From IMG/VR virus record IMGVR_UViG_3300012931_000019, positions 18,154 through 82,153 of that record: DNA of 64,000 nucleotides, one strand, 5' to 3'. The position numbers were made by a program, and so were the translations under genes. Each line of letters opens with the position of its first letter. Positions within the stretch are counted from its first letter, which is position 1. Origin of the DNA: a virus. This document shows, piece by piece, positions 7,425 through 50,179 of the stretch. Below the pieces are notes generated by a model, which saw only the letters and a program-made list of their open reading frames with translations, ran no database searches and was not told the DNA's origin.

Positions 7425-8538
7425 TACTTTTCATCAAAAATACACGTTTTATTTATAATTTTATTTGATATAATGATAAAAATTAATTATCTGATAGAGT
7501 AAATAATATATATAGTATATTTTTGATTATTATTTGATTTCAGTATACTATATGTTGTATGATTATTTTGATTGATATTCATGTATTTATTTTAGTACAA
7601 AATACATGATTGTACTGGATTGTATTTTGTAAACTATTAATGGGATAATAGTAGACAATTGCAGTTTTGTACCAATATTTTAGAGTATTAATAATCTGCA
7701 TAGGCTGAATACATTGCAATATAAGGGATTCAATGCCATTTTAATTCTAACGGGCTTTTATGACATAGGTGGATAGGTAATACCTTTGTAAATAAAATCG
7801 CTTAAATCGAATGTTTTAGGCATTGTGATTCGTATTTTATTTATGATTTTATCTGGAAATGATTGATTATGCGTGATAATTGCAACATTATTAACTATTG
7901 ATTAGTGTACGAATATTGATATTGCAATGGTTTGATGAATTAAATGTATAGAATATGTATGGTGTGAATAGATATAAATGTATATTGATTATAGAATATA
8001 GTACAATTCTTTAGTGTATGAAAGTATAGTAATATAGTAGGAATAGTATTGATTATATCATAGCATATTGGTATGGATTAATGTATAGTAAAACAGTATG
8101 AATTAATATTCTCTTTTGTATGCACAATTCAATATAATTTATATCATAGTTATTTGATATGATTTAATTCATAGTATAATAGTAGGATATAGGTTGTATC
8201 TCGGAGTTGCTGATCGAGTATTTATATCATAGTAAATTAGTATGATTAATATTAATTTAATTCATAGTATTTTGATATGAATAGTATAATATAACTATAC
8301 TTTATGCCTTATTTGTAATTTATTTCCTACTATTCCTAGTAGTTTAGTATGATATAAGTCTTCACCGCTTGGGTCCATGTTACCCGCGACCTAAAAACAC
8401 GAACAATCATTGAAATATCAACGTTTTCATTCGTAATGGTATGAAGTTCCTAGTAATTACCAATACTTACAATGATTATGCTATTCCTTATGCTATTAGT
8501 ATGCCCAAAAATGATTCAATTATGTATCAATCTCTTAT

Positions 8539-9088: not shown

Positions 9089-10027
9089 TTAAGATTTTAA
9101 ATTTTTAATATCCTCATTTACTTTATTTAAACTCAATTTTATTTCTTCTGAATTATCTTTTAATTGTTGCGCGTGGATTAAATTTTTTTGTTTTTTCAAT
9201 TCAATAATCTTCAAACCATTATTTATATATTTAAAGATAATATGTTCTTCTTCGTTCTTTGGATTGGATGTATTCAATATTTTATAATATCTCTTTTTAG
9301 GAATACCTCTTACAGTCATATTGATTAATTTCAAATCAGATAATCTTTTAATTGCAGTTGTCTGTGCACCTTCTTGTAATCCACATGAAAGTTCTAGATC
9401 ATTAATAGTACAAGAAAACTCTTCATATTGTTTATTTGAATTAGTTTGATACCAATGCCATTTATTTATTAATTCACAATAGATTATTGTTTCATTTAAT
9501 CCCAATGAATGAATTAATGGTTTTTTCAACATAATATACCCACCAGTTTCAAAATCTATATCTAATAAAATATCTCTAATGTATTCTGCATTAAATTCTT
9601 CATGTTTTATATATTTTCCATCATGATCCTGAATGTTATAAATAACTTTTTCTAACATTTCTATATGATTTTTATCGATAATATTTTGATTGAATATACC
9701 TTTTCTGCCTTCCAGCATTTCATACAAAGTATATTCAATATTATATCCACTATTAATACTGTCATATTCTTTTATGTATTTATCTTCATATACTAATAAA
9801 ATTAAATGATTTAAAGAATGTCTAAAATTATTTTTGAGTTCTTCTATTATTTCAAAATCAAAGTTTTCTTCTCCATATTCATTCCAATCATCCTGCAATT
9901 TATATGAATGATGATTACTACTGTTTAAATCGTTTTTATGCTCTTGCCATCTTCTCTCAATATTTAAACTTTCTCCTATGTAAACTTTATTATTGATGTT
10001 ATTCGTAATTTTATAAATTCCTTGCAT
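9089..10027 (-). CDS. GIY-YIG endonuclease domain fused to a replication-initiator-like winged-helix domain
   Basis: N-terminal GIYKITN...VYIGES...RRWQEH; C-terminal LGLNETIIYCEL...TAIKRLSDLKLI...RGIPKKRYY. Confidence 0.75.
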   Translation of the reverse strand: MQGIYKITNNINNKVYIGESLNIERRWQEHKNDLNSSNHHSYKLQDDWNEYGEENFDFEIIEELKNNFRHSLNHLILLVYEDKYIKEYDSINSGYNIEYTLYEMLEGRKGIFNQNIIDKNHIEMLEKVIYNIQDHDGKYIKHEEFNAEYIRDILLDIDFETGGYIMLKKPLIHSLGLNETIIYCELINKWHWYQTNSNKQYEEFSCTINDLELSCGLQEGAQTTAIKRLSDLKLINMTVRGIPKKRYYKILNTSNPKNEEEHIIFKYINNGLKIIELKKQKNLIHAQQLKDNSEEIKLSLNKVNEDIKNLKS

Positions 10028-10062
10028 CTATATTCTCCTTATTTGTTTTTAATTTTACTTCA

Positions 10063-10935
10063 TTAGTCTTCATCCTTATAAAACTCCTTCTCTTGTTTAT
10101 ACTGTAACTCATTCAGTTTTTCTTTCAACTTCTTATTTTCTTCTTCAAGACCTTTAATCTTTTCATTATTATTGATCTTCTGTTTTATACTTCTTTTTTT
10201 ATTACTTACAATCTTATCAGTATGTATAAGCCCTTGTACTTTAACTACATTTTTTAATTGTTCATTAAAACCTTTTTCATCATCATATAAACCTATAAAA
10301 GTAGCACAGTAATGATGCTGTGGTGTTAAATAATCATTATTAAATCTAATCAAATGCAAATCATCTTGAAGGATTCTATTATATCTTTTAATAGTTCTGG
10401 AATCACTAACAAGAGATTTAATTTTGATCTGTGGTAAATATCCAAATTTATTATCTGTATTACATACTCTCATACAGGCCACAAAGTATCTAACAAAATC
10501 ATATTTACTTACATTGGTAGATTGTAAATATTCAAATATTTTATTCATTTCCAAATCATAAATTTTAAAGTAACCATCTTCAGGAGGACTAGGCAATTCT
10601 ATGTAAAACGAAGTATCTTTACTTTTTATAATATTATCAATTATAATATTCTCATTAATACCATTACCTGAAAGATCATATATACTAGTCACATATTCTT
10701 TTTTCATAAGATTAGCAATAATATCTTTAATATCATTAAAAATCTTTTTATTATTATGATAATTTATATTCATAATATCTAAAAGTATCTGTATATTACA
10801 TAAAGATATATTTTTATATTGTTGATAATTTCTATACAATAGAATCAATATTGTTAACTCATCATTGGCAATATCTAAATCATCATAAATGCTATTAGGT
10901 AACTTAATATAATATTCTTTGAAATTTAAATTCAT
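10063..10935 (-). CDS. Putative DNA-binding/replication protein
   Basis: 290 aa; YYIKLPN start and HTH-like helices; lies just downstream of iteron-like repeats. Confidence 0.55.
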   Translation of the reverse strand: MNLNFKEYYIKLPNSIYDDLDIANDELTILILLYRNYQQYKNISLCNIQILLDIMNINYHNNKKIFNDIKDIIANLMKKEYVTSIYDLSGNGINENIIIDNIIKSKDTSFYIELPSPPEDGYFKIYDLEMNKIFEYLQSTNVSKYDFVRYFVACMRVCNTDNKFGYLPQIKIKSLVSDSRTIKRYNRILQDDLHLIRFNNDYLTPQHHYCATFIGLYDDEKGFNEQLKNVVKVQGLIHTDKIVSNKKRSIKQKINNNEKIKGLEEENKKLKEKLNELQYKQEKEFYKDED

Positions 10936-10999
10936 AATTTATTTCCTTTCATTTTATGTAAGAGAATCCCACTCATAATGCGGTAGCATTATATAGTAC

Positions 11000-11169
11000 T
11001 CTTTATATACTTATTTATATCTTTATTTATATTTTTATTCTTTATTCTTATTTTACTCTTTATTCTCTGTGATGTTTACCCCAAAACAGGGGGTATATTC
11101 TTGGACTGCATACCCCATTTTGCGTACAAATTCTAAGACTGCCCCTACCATTTTGAGTACAAATTCTAA
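11000..11169. repeat. Iteron-like direct repeats with AT-rich tract (candidate replication origin)
   Basis: CCATTTTG(C/A)GTACAAATTCTAA at 11115-11136 and 11148-11169 (33 bp period), next to a T-rich tract at 11000-11068. Confidence 0.5.
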
Positions 11170-11170
11170 A

Positions 11171-11436
11171 TCACCTTGCTTTTTGTACGCATTTTGGTGT
11201 AGGCAGTAAATCGTATTTAAAATCTCTGTGATTATTGCCATATGTAGCTTTGAGGCGTATTAATTCATTAAGACTCTTTTCAAAATTATAGGTTTTCTCA
11301 AATACATAAGATATTGTGTTGTCATCTTGTATGTATTTATAGTATCGAAAACCTAAATAAGACAATGCTTCAGCTAGATATTTCTTCTTTACGGTATAGA
11401 ATTCATTTTCTGTTTTATTTTAATTGGTTCATCCAT
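11171..11436 (-). pseudogene. Small phage gene with an apparent 1-nt frameshift near its 5' end
   Basis: The RBS-led MDEPIK frame stops after 15 codons; the -1 frame reads NKTENEFYTVKKKYLAEALSYLGFRYYK into ORF 11171..11365. Confidence 0.4.
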
Positions 11437-11495
11437 TCTATTCTTCTCCCTTCTAAACACTATAAGACTAAGGCATAGTCACCAACTACACCTGT

Positions 11496-12771
11496 TTGAC
11501 ATACTCCCCATGCTTAAAGGCAGGAGATTCCGGTATCTACAAGATTAGCCTACAAGCGCAGGTCTTATGATCTCTACTCCTAGAGTCGATGCCCCGACTC
11601 TTTCTATATTTAGTGCCGCATTATAATCTCTATCATGTATTGTATTGCAACATTCACAAGTCCATTCTCTGTCTGATAATGTGAGTTTTTCATTAATTGT
11701 TCCACATACATGACACGTTTTACTTGAAGGATAAAATCTAGGAATTTCAATTACTTGAGACCCATTTTTAGTGCATTGGTGTTTCAAGATATTGACAAAA
11801 CTGCTATGACTTAAATCAGATATTTTCTTTCCCCATAATCTCTGCATTGCTTTGATATTCAAGTTTTCAATACATATTACCGCATATTCTACTGATAATT
11901 GCGATGCTAGTTTAAAATGAAAATCTCTTCTCTGATCGGCAATTTTCTTATGTGTTTTTGCCAATTCACGCTTCGCTCTCTTATAATTATTTGATCCTTT
12001 CTTTTTCTTCGATAGTTTTCTATTTAACTTTTTTATTTTATTTTGACTATGTTTGAAAAATTCTGGTGATTTTATATCATTGTTATCTGATGCTTTCAAA
12101 AATGTCTTTAGTCCAAAATCATACCCGACAATTTTACCTGTTCTTGGTATAACTTCGTTCATTTCTTTTTTACATACTATAATAATATAAATATCTCCCA
12201 AAACATCTCTTTTGATTGTTATAGTTTTTACAGTTCCTTCAATTTCTCTTGATTTTGAATACTTATATATTTGTTTGCCAATTTGTATCTTATTCCCATC
12301 AAGTAGTCTATATCCGGTTTGAGTTAAAGTATAAGACTTATATTTCTTTACTTTCTTAAATGAAGGAGGTGCTGATTTAATACCATGCTTTTGATTACGA
12401 AAAAATAACTTATATGCCTTGTCAATACGCTCCACTATATTTTGTATAGTCTGTGAATTTAACTCATTCCAATAAACATATTTTCTTAATTTCTTTAATT
12501 TAGTTATATGCTTTTTAAGCTGATAATAATTGAGACTTTTACCATATAATCTATAATACCGTTTATGTAAGGCAATACAATGATTATAAATACGAGCAGA
12601 TATATTAATTTGTTTGTGTATATTTTTATTCTTTTTGTTTTTATATAGTTTGAATTTATAAGAAACCATACTACCTTACACCTCCTTCATATGTCCTTTT
12701 GATTTTTCTATGTCAAGTATTTTGTGCCTTATATTCCCATAGCTGAAGCTAGGGGTTTACGGCACGTTCGG
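11496..12771 (-). mobile_element. Non-autonomous IS200/IS605-family element (tnpB only)
   Basis: Left-end hairpin GTGCCGTAAACCCCTAGCTTCAGCTATGGGAATATAAGGCAC after TTAG; right-end hairpin ending GGGGAGTATGTCAA; only a KNQKDI-stop remnant where tnpA would end. Confidence 0.85.
11545..12669 (-). CDS. tnpB: TnpB RNA-guided endonuclease
   Basis: RuvC-I GYDFGLK, RuvC-II IENLN, Zn finger CHVC/CECC, RuvC-III DRDYNAALN all intact. Confidence 0.95.
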   Translation of the reverse strand: MVSYKFKLYKNKKNKNIHKQINISARIYNHCIALHKRYYRLYGKSLNYYQLKKHITKLKKLRKYVYWNELNSQTIQNIVERIDKAYKLFFRNQKHGIKSAPPSFKKVKKYKSYTLTQTGYRLLDGNKIQIGKQIYKYSKSREIEGTVKTITIKRDVLGDIYIIIVCKKEMNEVIPRTGKIVGYDFGLKTFLKASDNNDIKSPEFFKHSQNKIKKLNRKLSKKKKGSNNYKRAKRELAKTHKKIADQRRDFHFKLASQLSVEYAVICIENLNIKAMQRLWGKKISDLSHSSFVNILKHQCTKNGSQVIEIPRFYPSSKTCHVCGTINEKLTLSDREWTCECCNTIHDRDYNAALNIERVGASTLGVEIIRPALVG

Positions 12772-38960: not shown

Positions 38961-39299
38961 ATGATGACAATGAGTGATCGTTGGGTCTTTCAAAATGAAG
39001 CTACAACGACAGCAGATGGAGAAGCATTATTTTCTGGTAGATGGGATCAAGTAACTATATATATTACTGGAACTGCTACAAGTAGCACAGTAGTATTTGA
39101 AGGTTCTGACAAGGATGGAAATTGGTACAGTTTACCAGCTTTTAAAATGCCAGATTATACTTTAGCATCACAAACTACAGAACTTGATGAAGCATGGGTA
39201 ATAGATTTATCTAAATGGTATTCTGTTAGAGCGAGAATTGATTCAATTTCAGGTGGTTACATAACTATTGTTGGAAAAGTGGTGAACTCTAATGGTTAA
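38961..39299 (+). CDS. Small beta-sandwich virion protein
   Basis: TVVFEGS...VRARI motifs; coupled to the fibre gene. Confidence 0.6.
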   Translation: MMTMSDRWVFQNEATTTADGEALFSGRWDQVTIYITGTATSSTVVFEGSDKDGNWYSLPAFKMPDYTLASQTTELDEAWVIDLSKWYSVRARIDSISGGYITIVGKVVNSNG

Positions 39300-41679
39300 T
39301 CAAGATATTATAGGATTAGCAGTAAATGCTCTTAGAAATGCAAATGTCGATCCTTCCAATTATTTATATGTAGCTAAATCTGGAAGCGATTTAACGGGCG
39401 ATGGGAGTGCAGGAAAACCATATTTAACAGTTCAAAATGCTATTGATAATGCAAGTTCTGGTACAACACTGTTTATTTATCCCGGCACATATACAGAAAA
39501 TTTAACTTTAAAAGCTGGTGTGAATTTAACTACTTCAGCTAAATATAATACATATATTGTTGGTACAGTTACGGCAGATTTTACAGGTACAATTTTTGCG
39601 GAAAAAATTATATTTAAAAGTGCTACTGGTACAGTTCTTGATTTTAAAGGAACGGGAGTTCAAAATTTTCAATGTGCAATGTGTAATTTTGAATCTACTG
39701 GCACAAATGCAAATAGTGCAATTAATTGGACTAATAGTAATGCAAGTAGTAAAATATCGCTTAGTGATGGTGTTGTAACAGCTTATAGCTCTGCTTCAGG
39801 TGCAAGAGCATTTACAAGTTCTTCAATTGCCGCAGGAAGTTTAATTGCAAGCAATACTACATTCCAAGTATTAGATAATTTGGATAATATATGTATCAAT
39901 CTTGCGGGTTCACTTGTATTTACACATACATTAGATGCTATTAATGGACAGGTTGTTACAGCAAATACTGCAAGATTTTTAATTACGTTGGTTAGTTTAA
40001 CTACAAATACAGTACCTGTATTAGTTCATAACTCAACAAATACTACTTCTAGTGTGGCATCGAGTGTTGTTGTAACAACTACGGCAAGTCCAGTTATAAC
40101 AGGAATAGGAGCTTTTGCTCATGTTGCTATTATGTATGGAGGAACTGGTGCAGGTGGAAGTAGTACGATTAATGGAGGTTTAGGGCCAATTGGATTGCCA
40201 ATGGGGAGTGTTAAATTAAGATCGTCATCATTGGTTCCCGCCAACCAAATATCACTTGGATATAATACCGGAGCTTTTGAATTTACGGGAAGTGATTTAT
40301 ATCATACTATAAATACTAATAGATATAAAATGTCTATTTATCCAGAAGTTTATGCTTCACATACTTTATATGTAGATAATTCTCGTACCGATACATATAC
40401 TCCAGACGGTAGTGAGTCAAAACCGTATACTGATGTGCAAAGCGCACATAATGCAATAGGCGGGACTAATTATTTAACAGTAAATCAAAATAGTGTTGAA
40501 ACTGATTTAACTGGATTTGCGGCTAAATTAAGTGCTACATTATCAAGAGATACGACGGAATATAGGTTTGGAAGCGCATCGTTAAAAATTGTTACTCCGG
40601 GAACTGTGTCTGGTGAAGGTGTTACTTTAACAGGAAGTACCGTAACAGCATCAGTTAGTTATACTGCGGAAGTTTGGGTAAAAGGTTCAGGAACAGTTAC
40701 TTTGGCTCTACAGGAACAAACTTCAGGTGGAGTAGTTGTTGGTACTACCACAAAAGCAATCACGCTCTCATCTGTATGGACACGATATGAAATAGCAAGA
40801 ACATTTGGTACAACTGGTGTTTCGGCTGTAGTTTTATTATATACTTCTAGTACACAAGCTATTACTTTTTATGCGGATGGATTCAGAGTCGGATTAACTT
40901 CTCTTGTACCAAGTATTACTAATACTTATGGAATATCTGTAGCGTTGGGCATAAGGTATACTGGAACTTTAGACATTTGGAGAGATTATTTAACAATTTA
41001 TGGTCAAGGAGCGACAAAGGGTGCAGGATTTAAAGGGACAATTAATAATTGGTCGCCTCATCTAACAATATATGGTGTTCATTTAGTAGGAACTTCGAGT
41101 GCAACTAGAGATTGTTATTTTAATCAAACTATGAATGGTGATTATCTTCTTGAATTTAAAGAATGTAGATTGTCATATTGTACAATGAATGTTTCATCTA
41201 CGGGTACTACGGCTCAGAAAAATAATTCATATATACAAATTACGGGTGATTCTAATCTTTGGCAAAATAATACAATCAATATAACGGGCATAAATGGTTT
41301 TGCAGGAATGACTGGTGGTGCGTATGTGTCTAATACTGTTACTGTAACAGATAGTTATTTTTGTCCCGGCTGTTCTTGTGTGGATAGTTGCACAGTTAAT
41401 CTTGAGAGTGGCTCAACAAGTGAATTTTTTAGTATGTATGCAGTACGAAATACTACAAATCTCAAAACAGGTGCGACGCTATATGCTGATATTACTGCGC
41501 TGGCAGATATGAGCAATACGTTTAATAATACAGGCGGTACATTGATTCGCGTATCAGACCCACAAGTAAGAACTACAGTGCTTACTGGACTATCCACATC
41601 GACGAGTGCGGCAATTACCGAAACAGATACAATACTGGAAGCATTAGGGAAATTGCAAGCACAGATTAATGCTCTATAA
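39292..41679 (+). CDS. Tail fibre/spike with beta-helix and carbohydrate-binding modules
   Basis: YVAKSGSD...GDGS...KPYLTVQNAID cap motif present twice; CBM-like segment (YTAEVWVKG...WTRYE); C-terminal TDTILEALGKLQAQI. Confidence 0.75.
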   Translation: MVNQDIIGLAVNALRNANVDPSNYLYVAKSGSDLTGDGSAGKPYLTVQNAIDNASSGTTLFIYPGTYTENLTLKAGVNLTTSAKYNTYIVGTVTADFTGTIFAEKIIFKSATGTVLDFKGTGVQNFQCAMCNFESTGTNANSAINWTNSNASSKISLSDGVVTAYSSASGARAFTSSSIAAGSLIASNTTFQVLDNLDNICINLAGSLVFTHTLDAINGQVVTANTARFLITLVSLTTNTVPVLVHNSTNTTSSVASSVVVTTTASPVITGIGAFAHVAIMYGGTGAGGSSTINGGLGPIGLPMGSVKLRSSSLVPANQISLGYNTGAFEFTGSDLYHTINTNRYKMSIYPEVYASHTLYVDNSRTDTYTPDGSESKPYTDVQSAHNAIGGTNYLTVNQNSVETDLTGFAAKLSATLSRDTTEYRFGSASLKIVTPGTVSGEGVTLTGSTVTASVSYTAEVWVKGSGTVTLALQEQTSGGVVVGTTTKAITLSSVWTRYEIARTFGTTGVSAVVLLYTSSTQAITFYADGFRVGLTSLVPSITNTYGISVALGIRYTGTLDIWRDYLTIYGQGATKGAGFKGTINNWSPHLTIYGVHLVGTSSATRDCYFNQTMNGDYLLEFKECRLSYCTMNVSSTGTTAQKNNSYIQITGDSNLWQNNTINITGINGFAGMTGGAYVSNTVTVTDSYFCPGCSCVDSCTVNLESGSTSEFFSMYAVRNTTNLKTGATLYADITALADMSNTFNNTGGTLIRVSDPQVRTTVLTGLSTSTSAAITETDTILEALGKLQAQINAL

Positions 41680-41835
41680 TATGGGGATAATATAATAGAA
41701 TCAAATTCAGTTTTTAACGGAAGTTTAATAAGGGTGGAGTGAAATATCTTCGTCCTTATTATATTAGATTGAAATCGCAATTTTATATGAATTGAGTTTA
41801 TTAAATAAAATAATAAATAATTTTTAAATTTGTAC

Positions 41836-41863
41836 TTGACATTCTTTTCCAATGTGCTATAAT
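41836..41863 (+). promoter_or_regulatory. Consensus sigma-A promoter of the agr-like moron
   Basis: TTGACA-16 nt-TATAAT with extended TG and an upstream A-tract. Confidence 0.8.
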
Positions 41864-41890
41864 ACACATTAGAAAGGATGTTGAGAGAAG

Positions 41891-42295
41891 ATGAATAAGA
41901 TAAGAAAATATGTGACGATACCCGCAGTTATTGGGTCGGTATTAGTAATGATAGCTTTAATATATTATACAAGTAAATTTTATACAAATGCAGAATTATT
42001 ATTCCATCAGAATCAATTTAGCTTTTTTATTGCTTTTGCGTTAATTGTATTGTTTTTAATTCTTCTTTTATTTTATTATATTTTTATTGTAGGTAAAAGA
42101 TTTGAGAAAGCAATGAACGAGAGAGATGTAAAATTTGAGAAAATAATTAATGAAAAAGATGCGAAAATTGAAAGTCTGCTTAACGAAATTATTCAGCAAA
42201 ATGGAATTCATTCACAATGCACAGAAGAACATTTTGATCAAATAATTGAATCGAGTCAGATTATCAATGAATTAATTTTAGATACCAAGGGGTGA
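41891..42295 (+). CDS. Two-TM membrane protein with cytoplasmic coiled coil
   Basis: Two hydrophobic helices then a heptad-rich helix; first gene of the cassette. Confidence 0.7.
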   Translation: MNKIRKYVTIPAVIGSVLVMIALIYYTSKFYTNAELLFHQNQFSFFIAFALIVLFLILLLFYYIFIVGKRFEKAMNERDVKFEKIINEKDAKIESLLNEIIQQNGIHSQCTEEHFDQIIESSQIINELILDTKG

Positions 42296-42299
42296 TAAT

Positions 42300-42680
42300 T
42301 TGGATGATAATGAAAATATAAATATCATCAATTGGGCTAAGAGAAATTCCATGAAAAATAATCATAATTATTTCTGCAAACTTTTAAAGCATTTTAATAT
42401 AAATGAGTGTGATTATAACTTTTTTTGGAACGGGTATGGGGACTATAGCTTGTTGATCACCTTATCAGCAAAGCAGTATTTAATTGAGATTGATGATAGA
42501 CAAATGTGCTATAATTTATTATTTGAAGCCACAGCGTCAAATCAATGTAGAAAACCGAAATATATCGCACAAACAAATAAGAAAATGGAGCCTATTAAGT
42601 TTTATGGTGAAAACGTTATGTATAAGACATTAAAATATATCATTAATCACTGTAAAAGCAAAGGAGAAAAAATAATATGA
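42300..42680 (+). CDS. Soluble hypothetical protein in the agr-like cassette
   Basis: 126-aa ORF closely coupled to neighbours; no recognisable motif. Confidence 0.65.
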   Translation: MDDNENINIINWAKRNSMKNNHNYFCKLLKHFNINECDYNFFWNGYGDYSLLITLSAKQYLIEIDDRQMCYNLLFEATASNQCRKPKYIAQTNKKMEPIKFYGENVMYKTLKYIINHCKSKGEKII

Positions 42681-43135
42681 CACTCATAAGTAAAATTTTT
42701 ATAATGTTTATATTTTCAAGTGTATTTGATGGCTTGATAGTTGTTTCGTATTTTGTTTTGGACAATAATATTGGAAAGCGTTATAACAAATTTATTTATG
42801 GATTTTTTGCAACATCTATGGTAAATGCAATAATGTATGAATTAATGTCTGGTCTTGGATTATGGTTTCAATTAATTTTTATATTATATAGCGGTTTAGT
42901 TTTAGGAATAATATTTAATGTAAATATTAAAAGATCAATATTTTCTGTGTTTAAAGTAATGTGTTTAATGTTGATAATAGAAGCAAGTGTATCTATTTTA
43001 TTGACGGTAATTTTTAAAATTAATATGTTTTCAGTAAATTTTGATGCTAAAACATTGGCATTATGTATGCCACAGAGAATATTAGAATTTATAATTATAT
43101 ATTTTGGGAAGAAAAAAATAATCAAAAAGAGGTGA
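42677..43135 (+). CDS. Multi-pass membrane protein resembling an AgrC/VirS N-terminal sensor domain (no kinase)
   Basis: About five TM helices with LIIE...IF and PQRILEFIIIY pattern; ends without HisKA or HATPase domains. Confidence 0.55.
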   Translation: MTLISKIFIMFIFSSVFDGLIVVSYFVLDNNIGKRYNKFIYGFFATSMVNAIMYELMSGLGLWFQLIFILYSGLVLGIIFNVNIKRSIFSVFKVMCLMLIIEASVSILLTVIFKINMFSVNFDAKTLALCMPQRILEFIIIYFGKKKIIKKR

Positions 43136-43140
43136 TAATA

Positions 43141-43194
43141 ATGGAACAGGTTCGTTGCAAGTCATGGATTTTTGGTGATACCAGAATCAGATAA
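43141..43194 (+). CDS. AgrD-like cyclic peptide precursor, 17 aa (MEQVRCKSWIFGDTRIR; not in ORF track)
   Basis: AGAGGTGA RBS; Cys-x-x-W-x-F then G-D; directly upstream of agrB. Confidence 0.6.
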   Translation: MEQVRCKSWIFGDTRIR

Positions 43195-43220
43195 GTAAAC
43201 AAAAGAATACAAATAATGCG

Positions 43221-43253
43221 GGACTATTAATATTAATAGTCCTTTATTTATTT
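43221..43253 (+). terminator. Hairpin or terminator between the peptide gene and agrB
   Basis: Perfect palindrome GGACTATTAATATTAATAGTCC followed by TTTATTTATTT. Confidence 0.6.
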
Positions 43254-43270
43254 GTATGGAGGTGAATGGT

Positions 43271-43843
43271 TTGATTATTAAATTATCCATGTATATCGTG
43301 GATATGTTACTTAGTTCAAAAATATTTAAGATACAAGACATAGATGATTTTACCGATAAGGTTATATTCTGTGTCTTTTTTATTATTTCTAATATTTTCT
43401 TTTTCGGGTTGGGTATTTTATTACACTGTGCTCTTCAAGTAATGATCGTATTAATTGTATTGACCGTATTGAGATTATTTTCTGGTGGATACCACAGTTC
43501 AGTTGATCGCTGTCTTATGATTAGCGTTCCGTATATTTTATTAATATCTATAATAGCTAAATATGCAATTAATTATTCAGACTTTTTATGTTTTTTAAGT
43601 ATATTAGCAGGTGTTTATATAATTAAAAAAGTACCTATTATCCCTAAAATTGATATGAACAATAAAATAGAAAAATGGTTTCAAGGAAGATATATTGATG
43701 TTTTTCTTTTATTTTATGTAATCAATTATATATGTTTGTCTTTACATAGTGGAATAGGGAATTTAATTTCAAGTTCAATTAGTATGGCTATTCTTGGAGT
43801 AGCTTTAATGATGAGAAAAAATAAAAAGATAAATTATGATTGA
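43271..43843 (+). CDS. agrB: AgrB-family membrane peptidase/cyclase
   Basis: LRLFSGGYH-x5-C catalytic signature in a multi-TM protein; GGAGGTG RBS favours the TTG start at 43271. Confidence 0.85.
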   Translation: MIIKLSMYIVDMLLSSKIFKIQDIDDFTDKVIFCVFFIISNIFFFGLGILLHCALQVMIVLIVLTVLRLFSGGYHSSVDRCLMISVPYILLISIIAKYAINYSDFLCFLSILAGVYIIKKVPIIPKIDMNNKIEKWFQGRYIDVFLLFYVINYICLSLHSGIGNLISSSISMAILGVALMMRKNKKINYD

Positions 43844-43899
43844 ATGAAAGAAGAGTTTTAACGGAATTTTTGAAAATAATAATGTTGAAATTTAAACAT

Positions 43900-43927
43900 G
43901 CACTTTACTTGGTTAAAGTGCTTTTTT
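43900..43927 (+). terminator. Intrinsic terminator closing the agr-like cassette
   Basis: GCACTTTA-CTTGGT-TAAAGTGC-TTTTTT. Confidence 0.75.
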
Positions 43928-43951
43928 ATTGGATTAAAAGGAGGAATTTTT

Positions 43952-44521
43952 ATTAATCAAGTATTAAAATTAGTATCACCTATTTCTCCCAGCGTCAACC
44001 ATTACTTGGCGTATCGGGCGATTATAAAAAACAAGAAGCCTATGGCAATGAGTTATAAGACTTCTGAAGCTACAAAATATCAAAAGGATTTTATTAAATA
44101 TGTGAAAGAACAGGTTGAACTTCAAGGATGGGTTAAGTCTGAAAATAAATTTCAGCATTATTATATGGATACATATTTCTATTTCCCAAGAACAGATATG
44201 GATGCAAATAATTATTACAAATGCCTCGCTGATGCGATAACAGATGCTGAAGTTGTTTGGATTGATGATGTTCAATTGTGTGAAAGAGTACAAGGAATAC
44301 TTTATGACTCACAGAATCCTAGAATTGAAATGGAAATAAAGCCAGTAGACTACATAGGTATATTTAAAGATATATCTCAATTAGATCAATTTGAATCTAA
44401 TTGCGTCGATTGTACAAAGTATAACCGAAATTGTAGTATTCTTGTAAAAGCAAAGGAAGGCAGAATACAGGAAGAAATTCAAAATTTAGTTTGTAGTAAG
44501 TTTAAACAAAATAAAAAATAA
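43952..44521 (+). CDS. RusA-like Holliday junction resolvase with Cys-rich C-terminus
   Basis: PSVNHY, DANNYYKCLAD, IDD motifs; the AGGAGG RBS points to an ATT start. Confidence 0.75.
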   Translation: MNQVLKLVSPISPSVNHYLAYRAIIKNKKPMAMSYKTSEATKYQKDFIKYVKEQVELQGWVKSENKFQHYYMDTYFYFPRTDMDANNYYKCLADAITDAEVVWIDDVQLCERVQGILYDSQNPRIEMEIKPVDYIGIFKDISQLDQFESNCVDCTKYNRNCSILVKAKEGRIQEEIQNLVCSKFKQNKK

Positions 44522-44549: not shown

Positions 44550-45236
44550 ATGACTAAAAAGAAAGTTAAGATAGAAAATGACAATATAGAAGTTATTACG
44601 GAAAAAGAAATAGTTGAAGTTATTGAAGATAAAAAAGATATGGTTTCTTTAGTTGATGTAATTAAGAATAATGCTCATTATACGGTTAAATCATATCTCC
44701 CAATTGTACAAAAGACAGCATTAATTAGTTCGATAGTTGATCTGTGTACAAAACTGAATGAAGAAGGAATGTTGGTTGTTGATTATTGTTATAAGCATCT
44801 CTCAATGTGTTTAACCATTATTATCAGTTACACGAACATAGATATTTCTAATTTTGGTGATGAAGAAGCTTATGATGCTCTTGAAGAACATGGAGTTATG
44901 CAGGAAATTTTTAATAAGATGAATCCTGATGAAGTAAAATTCTTAAATGATACGTTGGAAGCTGAACTTAAACAAAAAGAAATAATTACAAATTGTGTTG
45001 AAGGAATTATAAATAGGGCATTGAATAAGGCTGTGGATAAGTTGCCAGATGCAAAAGATGTTGAAAAAATAACGAAAAATATTCTTAAATTTAATCCTGA
45101 TAAATTGAAATTCATGGTTGATCAGAACGAAAAATGGAACGGCACATTTGGAGGTAAAACTATTAAAGATTTACTAGGTGGATTTATTAATAGTGTCAAA
45201 AATGCTGATAAAAAGTCTATTGACACAGTTGAATAA
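44550..45236 (+). CDS. Hypothetical phage tail-region protein
   Basis: VKSYLPI...YTNI motifs; RBS. Confidence 0.65.
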   Translation: MTKKKVKIENDNIEVITEKEIVEVIEDKKDMVSLVDVIKNNAHYTVKSYLPIVQKTALISSIVDLCTKLNEEGMLVVDYCYKHLSMCLTIIISYTNIDISNFGDEEAYDALEEHGVMQEIFNKMNPDEVKFLNDTLEAELKQKEIITNCVEGIINRALNKAVDKLPDAKDVEKITKNILKFNPDKLKFMVDQNEKWNGTFGGKTIKDLLGGFINSVKNADKKSIDTVE

Positions 45237-45324
45237 CCAAATCAAATTCGGATTTCATGCCAAATTAAATGTTGAAATTTCAAAGCTCACTTTAGTACGC
45301 TAAACCGATTTAGAGGTAATAAAA

Positions 45325-45567
45325 ATGGAAAATAAATTATTTATTTGCGGTAGCAAAAATAATATACCAGAGATAAGAATTTTGCATGATGAGGACTGTC
45401 TTTTAACTACGGAGCAGACAGAAAGATTATTAGAACTTGCGAAAAATCCATTAAGTTATATGAGCAATTTAACAGAACAAGATGTATTAAATATTAAAGA
45501 TTATATCATTGCGGAAGCTAATACAGTTAAATACGCTGAAGAACAAGAAAAGAGGACTGTAGAATAA
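45325..45567 (+). CDS. Hypothetical protein
   Basis: 80-aa ORF, GAGGT RBS. Confidence 0.6.
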   Translation: MENKLFICGSKNNIPEIRILHDEDCLLTTEQTERLLELAKNPLSYMSNLTEQDVLNIKDYIIAEANTVKYAEEQEKRTVE

Positions 45568-45586
45568 ATAGATTGGGAGTGGTGGG

Positions 45587-46057
45587 ATGGATGTAACTAA
45601 TTATGCTCAACTCTTTGCACAAATAGAAGCGGCGGCTAAAGATGTATTGCAAAAGGAAATGGCTGATGCAGTAAAAGAAAAGATATCTGAAAAAGCAGAC
45701 GAAGATATTTATAATAGATATCCATATCCTAATCAATATCCACGTAGACGTAAAAATGGCGGTATATCTGATGTAAGACAAATGAATCATACCGTGGATG
45801 GACTAACTTTAGAAGTTACAGATGATGCAGATTTTAACAGGGAATTTGCAACGGAAGTTGGCTGGTATGGTGGAGTAGATTTATCTAAGTCATTGGCATA
45901 CAACCTAAACTTTGGCTATGGGGATGATGAATGGTCTGAACCATCTCACTTCATAGACGATGCAAGGAATGAATTAGCCTCATCTGGTGAAGTTAGAGAA
46001 ATTATGCGTAAGGGGTTACAGGAGAGATTAGGAGAAGGATCAGTAACAGTTACTTAA
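45587..46057 (+). CDS. Tail component (HK97 gp10-like)
   Basis: YNRYPYPNQYPRR...GG...PSHFIDDA pattern. Confidence 0.6.
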   Translation: MDVTNYAQLFAQIEAAAKDVLQKEMADAVKEKISEKADEDIYNRYPYPNQYPRRRKNGGISDVRQMNHTVDGLTLEVTDDADFNREFATEVGWYGGVDLSKSLAYNLNFGYGDDEWSEPSHFIDDARNELASSGEVREIMRKGLQERLGEGSVTVT

Positions 46058-46077
46058 ATAAAATAATTTCAGAATTT

Positions 46078-46103
46078 AAGACACTCTTCATGAGTGTCTT
46101 TTA
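46078..46103 (+). terminator. Intrinsic terminator
   Basis: AAGACACTC-TTCAT-GAGTGTCTT-TT. Confidence 0.75.
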
Positions 46104-46222
46104 TTGTGCAATTAAAGCACTTATACAGGCAAGATAGTGATTGCAACACGAAAGCCAAAAGTCCTATTGGTTTCTTGCCTATTATTTTAATTATAGGACA
46201 AAACATGAAAGGATGATGTTAA

Positions 46223-47827
46223 ATGTTAATTAGTAAATCAGTTATGATATCATGGAATGGGAAAAATAGGGAAATATATGAAAATTTAGGGTATAAATTT
46301 ACAAAGTGGAAAGATAAATTTGAAGTACAAATTGAAGATTTAAATATCAATAGTGATATAAAAGTGGAAGTTCGATGTGATTATTGTGGGAAAACTATAC
46401 ATGAAACTTATAGTAATTTTATAGATCATAGAAGTAAATCATATGTTCAAAAGGACGCATGTTGGGATTGCAGAAGCTTAAAAATGAAAGATAATGCTTT
46501 AAACAAAAATAAAGATAATAAATTAAATAGAAATGATGTTGGATATTGGCAAATAGAAGAAAATAGATTAAAAGAATTAGATAATTATATTAAAACTTAT
46601 GTGACAATTGATCATATGCGAAAAGACAAACTTGGATATTGTATACTTAATAGTATTTGGAGAAGTAACATGTCTGTAGATGAGTCAGTTATCAAATTAG
46701 GGTATAAAATAGAAGATGTAAAAACAATATTTAGTGTAGATATGTTTAATACATTTGATAAAATATCTGATTGTATTAATCAATATATTGAAAAATATGG
46801 TAGGTTTCCCACAATTACTGAGTGCAATGACAAATTAGGTATAACTCAAAAAGCATTAAAACAGTTTGGCGGAATACATGAAGTAAAAAGAAAAATGAAT
46901 TATAATGGAGTAAATGATTTAAAGGATGATAGAGGTTGGTATAACAAATCTTCATACGAATATATTGTAGCTCAATTTTTAATACATAATAACGTTCCAT
47001 ATAAAAGAGAACAGCGTCCATTTCCAGAAGATGAAGGAAGATATAAAAGCGATTTTACTTTTTATTTAGAAGACGAGATTATACATTGTGAAGTTTGGGG
47101 TTATTATAAAAAGCATGGAGGGTATTCTAAAATTTATATTAAAAATAAAAATATAAAGAAAAATTTATATAGAAAATATAATATAAATTATATTGAAATT
47201 GAGCCAGATATTTTTCGTGATAAATATGAAATGATATATGAGAGACTACGTAATATTTTTGAAAAAGTTTTAGGGTCTGTACATCAGGAATTTAATTTAG
47301 AAATTTTAATTCCACCAAATAAAATGACAGACGAAGAACTTTTAGAAGAAATTATGAAATATAGCGATGATAACGAATATTTACCTTCAGAAAATATATT
47401 GAGAAAATATCATAAATCTAGCATTTTTAATCAAATTATACAAAGATATGGGCATATTGACAATTTTGCATTAAAATTTAATAAAAAATCGAGAAGTTCC
47501 AAAGCTTTCAGCATTAAAAATTATGGACATAATGGCTTATTTCCTATTTATCTGGGATTCATGAATCGCTATGGAGAAATTTTTACTTTAGAAGAATTTA
47601 AACAAAAAGGAATTGGTGATTTACGTAGATATATAGATCATTTTGGTGGTTATGTTCAAAGTAAATTAGATTTTTATAGTTATTGTATTGAAAATAAAAT
47701 AACAATATCTCAAGAAGAAATTATTTGGTTAAAAAAGTTTGGAAATAATGAGTTTAAAAAACTTTATAGGCAAATAACTCCTGATCGGATTAATAAGGCT
47801 AATGAGATATTAAATTTAATAAACTGA
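46223..47827 (+). CDS. Freestanding homing-endonuclease-like protein (zinc ribbon plus PD-(D/E)xK nuclease)
   Basis: VRCDYCG...ACWDC; SSYE...YKSDF...HCEVWG; repeated helical GRFPT-type modules. Confidence 0.7.
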   Translation: MLISKSVMISWNGKNREIYENLGYKFTKWKDKFEVQIEDLNINSDIKVEVRCDYCGKTIHETYSNFIDHRSKSYVQKDACWDCRSLKMKDNALNKNKDNKLNRNDVGYWQIEENRLKELDNYIKTYVTIDHMRKDKLGYCILNSIWRSNMSVDESVIKLGYKIEDVKTIFSVDMFNTFDKISDCINQYIEKYGRFPTITECNDKLGITQKALKQFGGIHEVKRKMNYNGVNDLKDDRGWYNKSSYEYIVAQFLIHNNVPYKREQRPFPEDEGRYKSDFTFYLEDEIIHCEVWGYYKKHGGYSKIYIKNKNIKKNLYRKYNINYIEIEPDIFRDKYEMIYERLRNIFEKVLGSVHQEFNLEILIPPNKMTDEELLEEIMKYSDDNEYLPSENILRKYHKSSIFNQIIQRYGHIDNFALKFNKKSRSSKAFSIKNYGHNGLFPIYLGFMNRYGEIFTLEEFKQKGIGDLRRYIDHFGGYVQSKLDFYSYCIENKITISQEEIIWLKKFGNNEFKKLYRQITPDRINKANEILNLIN

Positions 47828-48287
47828 TTGTACATAAACCCGATGAATTGGTAATTCTATTTTGTCTCAAATTATATACAATATTCGGGACAAAGCATAT
47901 CGGCACTTATTTTAAAAATTGCCAAAGTGCGTAATGAAAATCAGACAAAGTACGTAACAAGGGCATCTTGAACAGAATGTTCGGGATTATATAATAAATT
48001 TGAGAATAACCGTGAGAATAATTTGCGGCTATTTTCTATTTGCATTAAAATACAGAAACTAATTTAAAAATATCGGCATTTTGGTGTAATTTGGAATTTG
48101 TAAAATATGCATATTGCTTTAGGAGAGATAAATGGAAACGAAGTATTATTACTTTTGTAAATATAAAGACGATAACGATATTTTGCTTGTTCGATCTGGA
48201 CAGGGAAATAGCGTGAGAGAAATAGTAGATTTGTTTGACAAATATAGAATATTGGAAATAGAGATTAAGTATAGAAAGTAAAAGGAG

Positions 48288-49373
48288 TTGGAAGTATTGG
48301 CAAAATCTAAAGTAGTTAGAGTAAAATATTTTACACCGGAAAGAATAGCATTAATAAATCCAGATAATTTAGTATTATATGAAAAGTATTTAATGTCAAA
48401 TATAATTAAGAATAAGGATGTTGAACAGACAACTTTTAAAACTTATAAGAACTCAATGCAACAGTTTTTAGTATATCTTGCAGAAAAATGGAATAATATT
48501 GGTTTATATTCTCCTGAATTCTTTGAATCCGCAGTTGATATAATGGAAGGTTTTATGGCATTTTGTGTAAATACATTAAAAAACAATAAGAAGGTTATTA
48601 ATACAAAAGTATCTTCGGTATCAACTTTTTATCTTTGGAGTATGAAAAGGAAATTGGTAGATAGACATCCTTTTGATAAAAAACTTGATAGAATGAAAGG
48701 TGCAAGTGAAGAAAAGATTATTAATTCATATTTTCTAACTGATGAACAGGTAACAGAAATTAGGCGTGGTTTATTAACCGATAAAAAATATGATATTCAA
48801 GACCAATTAATTTTTGAACTGTTTTTAGATAGTGCAAACAGAGTTGGGGCGCTAGACAAAATAACACTATCATCTATGGACTTGGAAAATATGGTTTTCA
48901 ATGATATTAGGGAAAAGAGAGGTTATAAGGTCGAAGTAGCATTCTCTGAAGCAACGAAGGATATTATTAAAGAATGGCTTGAAATGAGAAAAGACATGGA
49001 TAACCTTGACATTGATGCAATATTTTTAACTCGATATAATGGAAAATGGAACAAGATGACATATGGCACGATTCAAGATAGGATAAAACGTATTGGATAT
49101 ATTATTGGTTTAGAAGATTTTCATTGTCACTGTATGAGAAAAACAAAGCTTAACGATATTTATGTTAAAACTGGCGATCTTGCTCTTGCCGCAGAGTATG
49201 GAAATCATAAATCTACAGAAACGACAAGACAAAGTTATATAAAGCCAAAAAGTAAAACAGAAATCAGAGCTAAAATTAATGAGATGATGCAAAAGAATAA
49301 TGAGATAAAGGTAGAAATCGTTGACGAACCTATTGAAATTCCAACAGAATCATCTTCAGAAGAAAATCTTTAA
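48288..49373 (+). CDS. Tyrosine recombinase/integrase (YomM-like position)
   Basis: ANRVG (R), K, HCMR, GNH, SYI: full catalytic set. Confidence 0.9.
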   Translation: MEVLAKSKVVRVKYFTPERIALINPDNLVLYEKYLMSNIIKNKDVEQTTFKTYKNSMQQFLVYLAEKWNNIGLYSPEFFESAVDIMEGFMAFCVNTLKNNKKVINTKVSSVSTFYLWSMKRKLVDRHPFDKKLDRMKGASEEKIINSYFLTDEQVTEIRRGLLTDKKYDIQDQLIFELFLDSANRVGALDKITLSSMDLENMVFNDIREKRGYKVEVAFSEATKDIIKEWLEMRKDMDNLDIDAIFLTRYNGKWNKMTYGTIQDRIKRIGYIIGLEDFHCHCMRKTKLNDIYVKTGDLALAAEYGNHKSTETTRQSYIKPKSKTEIRAKINEMMQKNNEIKVEIVDEPIEIPTESSSEENL

Positions 49374-49403
49374 ATAAAATCAAAAATAATTTTAAAATAT
49401 GTG

Positions 49404-49432
49404 TTGACAGATAATTTAGAGTATGGTATATT
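49404..49432 (+). promoter_or_regulatory. Sigma-A promoter for the ncRNA/tRNA locus
   Basis: TTGACA-17 nt-TATATT, extended TG, upstream AAATAAAATCAAAAATAATT. Confidence 0.75.
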
Positions 49433-49469
49433 ATAGATGTACTAAAGATTATCCTTTCTCTTGTACAAT

Positions 49470-50095
49470 ATCTTTTTTTGTTCTGATTTGTAGTAAGGCT
49501 TGCTATTAGTGTAGTGAGCCTTACTAAAGCAAAATAAATGGCATAGAAGGAGTATTTTATCGGTTTTATATCGACTAAAATAAAAAATAAGTTTTAGATT
49601 TGTATTATGGCTTAACGCCGCCACGAAAGAGATTTAAATTATCTGAGGTTTGGAAAAGGTAGCCAACACCACACCTAGAAGCTTAGTCGGACGAATGTGC
49701 CGATAGTGCGGAATCACAGAAACTTCCCTATATTTTCAATGATGCATTGAATAGTACGCTAGGGTACGATAAAGAATGTTAGGAGATGCAAGAGTACCGT
49801 CTTGCCAGATAATTTAGATATAAAGATAGGTCATTTGTGACCATGTCCATTAATTGCAATAATGGGGTTGACAGAATACGCCTACTACTGGCGTAATAAA
49901 TAAGTAGATTTTAGGTCTTTGAAGGCCATGTTGGTATGTTGGGCGAACTTCCCACGTGAAGTTGAGGTAGTAGACTATGACGATAGTCGAGGGTGGTTAC
50001 ATAAAATTAACAGTTCGGAAAATCTGAACGAAAGGGTAGAGAAGACAGGAGCAATGTTTTGTTAGTTTTAATGCGAAGAAAAGCCTGTCTGATAC
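49470..50095 (+). ncRNA. Candidate structured non-coding RNA(s)
   Basis: No credible ORF; GC-richer than flanks; long hairpin 49491-49526; closing helices TAAATTATCTG/CAGATAATTTA and AGATAGG/CCTGTCT. Confidence 0.5.
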
Positions 50096-50103
50096 ATATA
50101 TGA

Positions 50104-50179
50104 TGGGACTTGGTGAAGATGGCCTAACACAGCAGGTTTTGATCCTGCCATTTCGAAGGTTTAAATCCTTCAGTCCTAG
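50104..50179 (+). tRNA. tRNA-Gln (anticodon TTG), atypical T-loop, no encoded CCA
   Basis: Acceptor TGGGACT/AGTCCTA, D stem GTG/CAC, anticodon arm GCAGG-TTTTGAT-CCTGC, T arm GAAGG-TTTAAAT-CCTTC. Confidence 0.8.

Follow-up and report, generated by a model that had tools for sequence, protein, structure and literature searches.

A probable mobile agr-like cassette on a phage contig, combining AgrB, a conserved cysteine mini-peptide and a kinase-less homologue of the AgrC sensor

The segment at positions 41836–43927 of the DNA analysed here, a window of 64 kb which corresponds to bases 18154–82153 of an 82-kb IMG/VR virus contig, is a self-contained unit comprising a promoter, five genes, and a terminator. 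We are confident that it represents a mobile cassette in which an intact AgrB, a conserved mini-peptide with a Cys residue, and a homologue of the AgrC sensor without the kinase are brought together. We also lean, by a little, towards reading it as a kinase-free signalling unit. On this reading the membrane protein g3 would sense either the peptide made by AgrB or the autoinducing peptide (AIP) of the host, and would signal by protein contacts, probably with the products of g1 and g2. A preliminary description of this DNA had presented the segment as a self-contained unit with its own sigma-A promoter and terminator, encoding a coiled-coil protein with two transmembrane (TM) helices, a soluble protein of 126 amino acids (aa), a ~5-TM protein, an unannotated peptide of 17 aa, and an AgrB. 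All of the listed elements are present, with minor corrections to the coordinates, and the open reading frame (ORF) of the peptide has a ribosome-binding site (RBS) of its own. Free energies (dG) and z-scores (z) are given for the hairpins.

41836–41863, plus strand: sigma-A-type promoter TTGACA-16-TGcTATAAT (score 12/12, perfect −35, extended −10 with TG)
41891–42295, plus strand: g1, ORF of 134 aa, two TM helices by hydropathy and a helical tail
42300–42680, plus strand: g2, ORF of 126 aa, soluble
42677–43135, plus strand: g3, ORF of 152 aa, five predicted helices
43141–43194, plus strand: 17-codon Cys peptide gene, MEQVRCKSWIFGDTRIR, with the RBS AGAGGTGA upstream
43207–43257, plus strand: stem-loop with U tract in the gap between the peptide gene and agrB (dG −21 kcal/mol, z −4.7)
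43271–43843, plus strand: agrB, TTG start, 190 aa, PF04647
43900–43927, plus strand: intrinsic-terminator-like hairpin, GCACTTTA...TAAAGTGC followed by TTTTTT (dG −11.8, z −2.7)

The promoter is the sole perfect match to the sigma-A consensus in the window; as 0.26 such matches are expected per window by chance, it is not significant when taken alone. The four protein ORFs are closely spaced or overlapping, and the stem-loop at 43207–43257 was scored as terminator-like in a terminator scan. This hairpin, lying between the peptide gene and agrB, may serve as a leaky terminator or as a stabiliser of the transcript, and would thereby raise the ratio of precursor to enzyme. A comparison of positions 41500–44200 with the Rfam families gave no match.

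The results from a search of 5.8 billion proteins indicate that the cassette AgrB has one relative other than itself, which leads to two near-identical metagenome contigs, L002 (143 kb) and L003 (123 kb). L002, presumably a phage contig, carries the same five genes in identical order, and its products share 53% (g1), 48% (g2), 54% (g3), and 57% (AgrB) amino acid identity with those of the window. The promoter of this second copy, TTGACA-17-TGaTATAAT (8466–8494), is equally perfect and occupies the same place ahead of the cassette. An ORF for the peptide, (M)RNCEKFWVLGDTRTK, is found at the equivalent place (9769–9819) with GGGAGG upstream, and the gap between the peptide gene and agrB includes, at the same position, a different and stronger hairpin with a U tract (dG −36, z −5.2). 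When all ORFs of a 20-kb stretch of L002 were compared by blastp with the 64-kb window, the only matches were the four cassette proteins and an antisense ORF located within the g3 gene. Since the same cassette is present in both places and no other similarity was found over 20 kb, the block moves between otherwise unrelated contigs. Both copies are low in GC content, 25.7% in the window and 24.1% in L002, against 30% for both contigs (30.0% for the window). These characteristics fit a phage accessory unit, or moron, which would move as a block. Furthermore, the co-occurrence of the genes elsewhere, named in the preliminary description as a check on its proposal, is thereby observed, with five genes, the same order and the same type of promoter on L002.

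Other collections were searched as well. Neither blastn of the cassette nor tblastn of AgrB and g3 gave a match among 50,697 phage records, and scans of IMG/VR with AgrB, g2, and the g3 relatives P0011 and P0012 returned no relatives. A scan of genome contigs gave no match with g2 and, with the AgrB core, only two distant loci of canonical or LytTR type.

Judging from its primary structure, the product of 43271–43843 is a true AgrB-family membrane peptidase/cyclase. It matches the Pfam family PF04647 (E value 3e-12) with 46.7 bits, the cut-off being 23, and its residues 33–183 cover positions 19–178 of the 185 in the model. The match to an AgrB profile that the preliminary description had called for is therefore obtained. 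In an alignment of 12 AgrB sequences, ten of them bacterial, the residues R68, G72, G73, H75, C81, and P122 are invariant. The catalytic His/Cys pair of the Staphylococcus aureus enzyme is H77 and C84, and this pair is kept in the cassette protein. The score is weak beside those of the bacterial copies (118–146 bits), the NCBIfam models gave no match to the cassette AgrB, and a sequence search for solved structures of AgrB found none.

The low score, together with the missing NCBIfam match and the atypical peptide, might be taken to mean that a phage once acquired an agr locus from a bacterium and that the cassette is what is left of it, decaying and functionless, with a small ORF that arose by chance. 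We hold this to be very improbable. In two cassettes whose flanks are unrelated, the four proteins and the peptide ORF are all intact and conserved at ~50% identity; both copies preserve the promoter, the RBSs, and the hairpins; and the catalytic residues of AgrB are in place.

An observation of its own concerns the AgrB family in Clostridia. At one locus (L021 2971–3780; genome G205, contig C429), agrB and a canonical agrD (…ASASACFFGYYQPEEPACLKQE) form a single ORF of 269 aa with no intervening stop, which is either a natural AgrB-AgrD fusion or an artefact of sequencing or read-through.

The peptide gene is located 76 nucleotides (nt) upstream of agrB, and it is conserved as an ORF in L002. 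The peptides from the window and from L002 have in common the Cys, a Trp, a hydrophobic pair, and the motif GDTR followed by x-K/R. Their Cys and Thr codons differ by synonymous changes, and the distance between Cys and Trp differs by one codon. A segment corresponding to the Cys ring of AgrD, short and with aromatic or hydrophobic residues in part, is present in both, reading C-KSWI(F) in the window peptide and C-EKFW(VL) in that of L002. The mini-peptide is thus a candidate for a leaderless, minimal AgrD-like precursor. A cut by AgrB before or within the tail would leave a product of ~8–12 residues, as long as a mature AIP, without any requirement for a leader peptidase. An in-frame extended precursor of 43 aa (43063–43194) was also considered; it was rejected as the conserved form, a stop codon being found in L002 eight codons before the start.

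The third protein, g3, was compared with Pfam, NCBIfam, PHROG, and PADLOC and could be placed in no family. Its structural model has no fold match in the PDB, and the neighbours of the model in the ESM Atlas are unnamed proteins of Bacillota. When 1.84 billion representatives were searched with a profile, the g3 family was found to have 19 members, 17 of which are stand-alone proteins of ~140–170 aa. A profile constructed from 18 sequences of this family (A6) was then used with 399 genomes of Clostridia and 401 further genomes of Bacillota. In the former, 13 matches were found in 11 genomes, and 10 of these 13 directly adjoin an agrB of PF04647. The latter gave three matches, each a stand-alone protein adjoining agrB, so that in the pooled set of 800 genomes the gene is adjacent to agrB in 13 of 16 cases. 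Because agrB occurs ~276 times in 400 Clostridia genomes (~0.7 copies per genome; present in 153 of the 400), the chance that a random gene adjoins it is well under 1 in 1000. Six of the Clostridia matches are the N-terminal TM domain (residues ~14–154) of kinases of 444–480 aa with HATPase_c_5, the AgrC-type GHKL domain, and four of these six also include the SPOB_a DHp domain. Most of the remaining matches are stand-alone proteins of 150–170 aa.

When the g3 family was aligned by hhalign with the N-terminal domains of the six agr-linked kinases (97.8%, E value 1.2e-12, 144 columns) and with the stand-alone 5-TM proteins located upstream of agrB (97.4%, E value 1e-11), an acidic residue of helix 1 (D18) and a near-invariant Glu of helix 4 (E102) were aligned, although these E values are optimistic because the targets were chosen from matches of the same profile. 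Independent support for the homology comes from the adjacency to agrB and from the kinase domains of the matches. Compared with three single sequences, namely one canonical AgrC from Lachnospiraceae, the membrane protein of a Bacillales locus (L006), and gp44 of phage Abouo, g3 showed no significant similarity, and it therefore belongs to a single lineage of clostridial agr sensors. Within this lineage, one kinase aligns over its full length with the NCBIfam model of staphylococcal AgrC (E value 7e-12), below the cut-off of the model.

By the positive-inside rule, the N-terminus of g3 is outside and its Lys-rich C-terminus inside, a topology that would be expected of a sensor module truncated immediately ahead of the kinase portion. 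The protein ends at residue 152 after the fifth helix and gives no Pfam match, hence neither a DHp helix nor a GHKL ATPase is found in it. We consequently regard g3, on the strength of these comparisons, as a kinase-less homologue of the sensor (TM) domain of AgrC. The preliminary description had suggested a novel membrane receptor at this place. The idea of a receptor is directly supported, while the novelty is not, given that the family is homologous to the AgrC sensor domain.

The preliminary description had further stated that the unit contains no kinase ATPase domain and no response regulator, and this agrees with our searches. Neither the cassette nor the rest of the 82-kb contig gave a HATPase_c_5, LytTR (PF04397), or receiver domain, and the sole HATPase_c signal on the contig is a sub-threshold one of 13 bits in an ORF of the tail region.

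The two remaining genes of the cassette encode proteins with no assigned family. The product of g1 has two hydrophobic helices joined by a short outer loop and a charged, helical, cytoplasmic C-terminal tail of ~65 aa. In the comparison with the L002 copy, conservation is far stronger in the TM helices than in the tail, where there is an indel of 8 residues, and this suggests that g1 may make its contacts within the membrane. No family of Pfam, NCBIfam, PHROG, or PADLOC was matched above threshold, and the similarity to the BhlA holin family is very weak (E value 0.053). The product of g2 likewise has no match in these four collections, and a search of 5.8 billion proteins brought up no more than three relatives. 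Its AlphaFold2 model (mean confidence, pLDDT, 78.6) is an alpha-alpha-beta6-alpha sandwich. Foldseek gave no match to this model in the PDB, the best VIA-align match (Z 7.0) is within the noise and not significant, and the ESM Atlas gave 0.84 at most. Nor does g2 appear to be a LytTR protein, since the comparison with gp47 of Abouo gave an E value of 0.49 and no LytTR was seen among the top 50 structural matches. At present, g2 can be named as a candidate for an output or partner protein. As a separate observation, the plasmid anti-SOS protein PsiB was encountered in two structural comparisons of g2 (VIA-align Z 5.8 with 3nct_A, and 0.80 in the ESM Atlas), both of which are below any threshold.

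We also considered whether the three proteins might be a split and permuted AgrC, with g1 providing the last TM helices and the DHp domain and g2 the ATPase. This was rejected for g1 and g2 and holds for g3 only. In hhalign with full-length agr-linked kinases, g1 gave an E value of 0.075 over 8 columns and g2 one of 0.26 over 17 columns.

Phage-borne agr genes are not new. The agr3 locus of the Clostridioides difficile phage phiCDHM1 includes agrD, agrB, and a full agrC with no response regulator (PMC3901668); the preliminary description had mentioned that this phage carries agrDBC. These genes have a GC content of 24.4% versus ~30% and are transcribed in lysogens (PMC3901668). The cassette resembles them in being a phage-borne, regulator-free accessory agr block of low GC content (25.7% versus 30.0%). 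Unlike phiCDHM1, which has a full AgrC kinase and an AgrD of normal length, it carries a five-helix sensor without DHp or ATPase and a leaderless precursor of 17 aa; in addition, two extra genes of unassigned family are part of the unit, and the phage is SPbeta-like by its terminase. A tblastn search of phages with an agr-linked kinase recovered generic kinase domains only, and phiCDHM1 itself was not among the matches.

A second group of relatives is found in GenBank in the Brevibacillus phages Abouo, Emery, and Davies and in the Paenibacillus phages Harrison and Paisley, where an annotated AgrB adjoins a membrane protein; in the papers found, cassettes of this type receive no more than a brief mention. 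In Abouo, a membrane protein of 222 aa is followed by AgrB, a cyclic lactone autoinducer peptide, and gp47, a bare LytTR domain (PF04397, E value 1e-6), and the cassette is beside the integrase and repressor genes. Such cassettes share with ours the temperate phage, the bare multi-pass membrane protein, AgrB, the small Cys peptide, and a small soluble protein in place of a response regulator. In contrast, g2 is not a LytTR protein, g1 has no counterpart, g3 has no detectable similarity to the 222-aa membrane protein, and the gene order is different. The Abouo cassette has an AgrD of 42 aa, whereas here a minimal precursor is found, and the cassette is situated in the structural region. A further cassette of the Abouo type was noticed in a Bacillales metagenome-assembled genome (CAYYCV010000019.1, L006 5613–7361), with a membrane protein of 218 aa, AgrB, an AgrD of 41 aa, and a LytTR-only protein of 139 aa.

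In the chromosomes of Clostridia, g3 homologues occur in loci of two types. Type A consists of a 5-TM gene overlapping the start of agrB, agrB, a canonical agrD, and then either a TM-GGDEF-HD-GYP protein or a TM-PAS kinase; this overlap, with the canonical agrD following, is seen at four loci. Type B consists of agrD, an AgrC-like kinase, and agrB. The cassette protein g3 is homologous both to the stand-alone 5-TM protein of type A and to the kinase sensor domain of type B, and the invariant residues of AgrB are the same. No homologues of g1 or g2 were found in the type A and type B loci examined. Unlike in type A, where the bacterial genes overlap, the peptide gene separates the 5-TM gene from agrB in the cassette. 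Moreover, the clostridial loci have a canonical AgrD of 40–49 aa and, as a plausible output, a kinase or an enzyme of cyclic di-GMP (c-di-GMP) metabolism. Type A recalls, by description and not by sequence, the operon of Clostridium perfringens, where agrBD are transcribed together with two hypothetical ORFs (PMC2706048). At three of the clostridial loci (L020–L022; genomes G270, G205, and G372), the gene directly after 5TM-agrB-agrD encodes a membrane protein that has both a GGDEF and an HD-GYP domain, an arrangement that suggests a direct link of AIP signalling to c-di-GMP turnover.

The cassette follows the logic of canonical agrBDCA in S. aureus and other Bacillota in having an enzyme of AgrB type, a precursor with a Cys, and a membrane sensor module of AgrC type. 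It differs in that no DHp, ATPase, receiver, or LytTR was found, in the leaderless precursor, and in being a unit carried by a phage. With phage agr genes and kinase-less phage agr cassettes both known already, the present one is a further variant. From the known kinase-less phage cassettes it appears to be distinct in the lineage of the sensor, the soluble protein, the extra membrane protein, the gene order, the location, and, above all, the minimal precursor.

The mechanism which we propose begins with transcription of the unit by the host RNA polymerase, in lysogens or early in infection, when the hairpin after the peptide gene would result in an excess of precursor transcript. AgrB would remove the short C-terminal tail (…GDTRxK/R) and close a thiolactone on the Cys, giving a product of ~8–12 residues. 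At the membrane, the sensor module of g3 would bind either this peptide or an AIP that the host itself makes. Being kinase-less, g3 would then relay the signal by protein–protein contact, and the most plausible partners would be g1, anchored in the membrane, and g2, which is soluble. Other phages have kinase-less agr cassettes that would offer a parallel, in that a LytTR-only protein accompanies a bare sensor there. A decision of the phage or the lysogen would probably be the output.

Several observations weigh against such a kinase-free signalling unit. AgrD has an N-terminal leader of ~20–25 residues, amphipathic or hydrophobic in character, while only 5 residues (window) and 3 residues (L002) precede the Cys of the mini-peptide. 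The acidic, Pro-containing tail of AgrD is absent too; the tail found here is (F)GDTRIR or (VL)GDTRTK, of 6–8 residues with no Pro. The canonical AgrDs located beside bacterial AgrBs have 40–49 aa with a leader of 20–30 residues and a tail of the form …SASAC-x4-YQPEEP(K)…. As the Cys ring is thus the only one of three AgrD sequence features to be present, we term the peptide AgrD-like and not AgrD, and its processing by AgrB is an assumption, because the leader and the acidic Pro tail are lacking. With regard to the sensor, loci of the C. perfringens type have a stand-alone 5-TM gene overlapping agrB alongside other sensor proteins, and the 5-TM protein may therefore serve the production or export of the peptide and not its sensing. 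For g1 and g2, no relatives with a known function were found, and their connection with g3 is a proposal. The complete cassette is so far known from no more than two independent copies. Finally, a kinase or regulator could lie elsewhere, as the contig is about half of the phage genome (CheckV completeness 49%).

Several of these points lead to a different explanation, in which the cassette would be a unit for production and interference. Here g3 would aid the processing or export by AgrB, or would be a decoy or dominant-negative form for the AgrC of the host, and the peptide would be read by, or would block, an Agr-type kinase of the host; the phage would manipulate the quorum sensing of its host instead of sensing a signal of its own. 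We judge this to be somewhat unlikely. It agrees with the four Clostridia loci of 5TM-agrB-agrD type, which have a separate receptor-like protein (TM-GGDEF-HD-GYP or TM-PAS-kinase), and with the hypothetical ORFs co-transcribed with agrBD in C. perfringens (PMC2706048). The phage phiCDHM1 is also devoid of a response regulator and has been proposed to act on host pathways (PMC3901668). Furthermore, with AgrB present in 153 of 400 Clostridia genomes, the likely hosts have Agr kinases as targets. However, g3 is equally similar to the sensor domains of true kinases and to the stand-alone forms, and the two extra conserved proteins would be superfluous for a pure producer. The explanation also presumes an Agr kinase in the host, and the mini-peptide is unlike any canonical AgrD found in the bacterial loci.

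The layout of the cassette would also suit an antimicrobial or toxic cyclic peptide, similar to the RiPPs, peptides made by ribosomes and modified after translation, which AgrB would mature and for which g1 and g3 would provide immunity or export, so that the lysogen would profit. A short precursor, small membrane proteins, a strong constitutive promoter, and a mobile cassette of low GC content would all be in keeping with it, as would the hairpin 3' of the precursor gene, which recalls many bacteriocin operons, and the very weak resemblance of g1 to BhlA mentioned above. To our knowledge, however, the products of AgrB are signals and not antibiotics. The g3 family is tied to AgrC sensors and agrB and not to known immunity families, and neither a transporter nor a match to PADLOC or to a bacteriocin-type Pfam family was found. 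We therefore consider an antimicrobial function improbable, and keep to the kinase-free signalling unit as the working explanation. The more general characterisation in the preliminary description, a non-canonical module for communication or interference, is supported in all points that can be tested computationally.

As to the setting of the cassette, the contig belongs to a large phage with a GC content of ~30%, whose terminase is 40–44% identical to those of SPbeta-type Bacillus phages and of the Psychrobacillus phage Perkons. Integrase-family genes are present on the contig. In a search of sequencing runs, the contig sequence was found in two wetland metagenome DNA runs, from which it may derive, and no RNA run was listed among the runs searched. 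An annotation as arbitrium (AimR/AimP/AimX) was not seen in PHROG scans of ten other ORFs of the window; no dedicated search was made, and half of the genome is missing. The cassette is within the structural region, flanked by a tail-fibre-like gene (39292–41679, phrog_4577) and a RusA resolvase gene.

The RusA-like ORF as listed (43898–44521) would begin at an ATG at 43898, which is inside the terminator hairpin of the cassette and has no RBS. A strong AAAGGAGGA is found at 43937–43945, and is followed after 7 nt by ATT at 43952, just 5' of the conserved N-terminus of RusA (…VLKLVSPISPSVN…), which suggests that this gene may use the rare start codon ATT at 43952. An 18-bp palindromic pattern, WTVAAW-N6-WTTBAW, flanks the cassette at 41700–41717, 41769–41786, and 43844–43861; two of these sites are 5' of the promoter and one is 1 nt past the agrB stop. 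The pattern is mildly enriched in the whole window (26 observed versus 17.1 ± 3.1 expected), and no such sites were seen by eye at the L002 copy. Between the cassette and the tail genes, the region at 44550–50179 is a patchwork of accessory genes that includes unknown ORFs, a homing-endonuclease-like gene (46223–47827), a phage-integrase-family gene (48288–49373), and a tRNA-Gln (50104–50179). In the early region on the minus strand (window 9089–12669) there are a GIY-YIG-type homing endonuclease gene (9089–10027) and a phrog_506 transposase (11545–12669, E value 1e-101).

In Bacillota, quorum sensing by peptides proceeds mainly through agr systems, and it is known that phages carry systems of this type or listen in on them. 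The present comparisons indicate that the small hypothetical 5-TM proteins found beside agrB in phages and in the chromosomes of Clostridia are, as far as sequence evidence goes, AgrC sensor modules without the kinase, and these modules point to an unstudied, phosphorylation-free reading or handling of AIPs. The candidate precursor, which amounts to the mature peptide with a tail of 6–8 residues, would be a compact test of what AgrB needs in a substrate and of whether membrane targeting by a leader is dispensable. Because the cassette is portable, brings its own promoter, and moves between phage genomes that are unrelated, it could easily be tested in a heterologous host, and it may provide a small orthogonal part for signalling. 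One may go further and suppose a complete, phosphorylation-free phage communication system, in which a leaderless precursor of 16–17 aa would be cyclised by a divergent AgrB, read by a bare AgrC-type sensor, and relayed via the coiled-coil g1 to g2, a protein of a new fold family, so as to steer lysogeny or induction in SPbeta-like phages of anaerobes. We think this full scheme unlikely as it stands. If true, it would include the shortest AgrD-type substrate known, and would be an agr-based counterpart of arbitrium, a plug-in unit moving between phages. Should the unit control lysis and lysogeny, the communication systems of phages would be widened beyond arbitrium.

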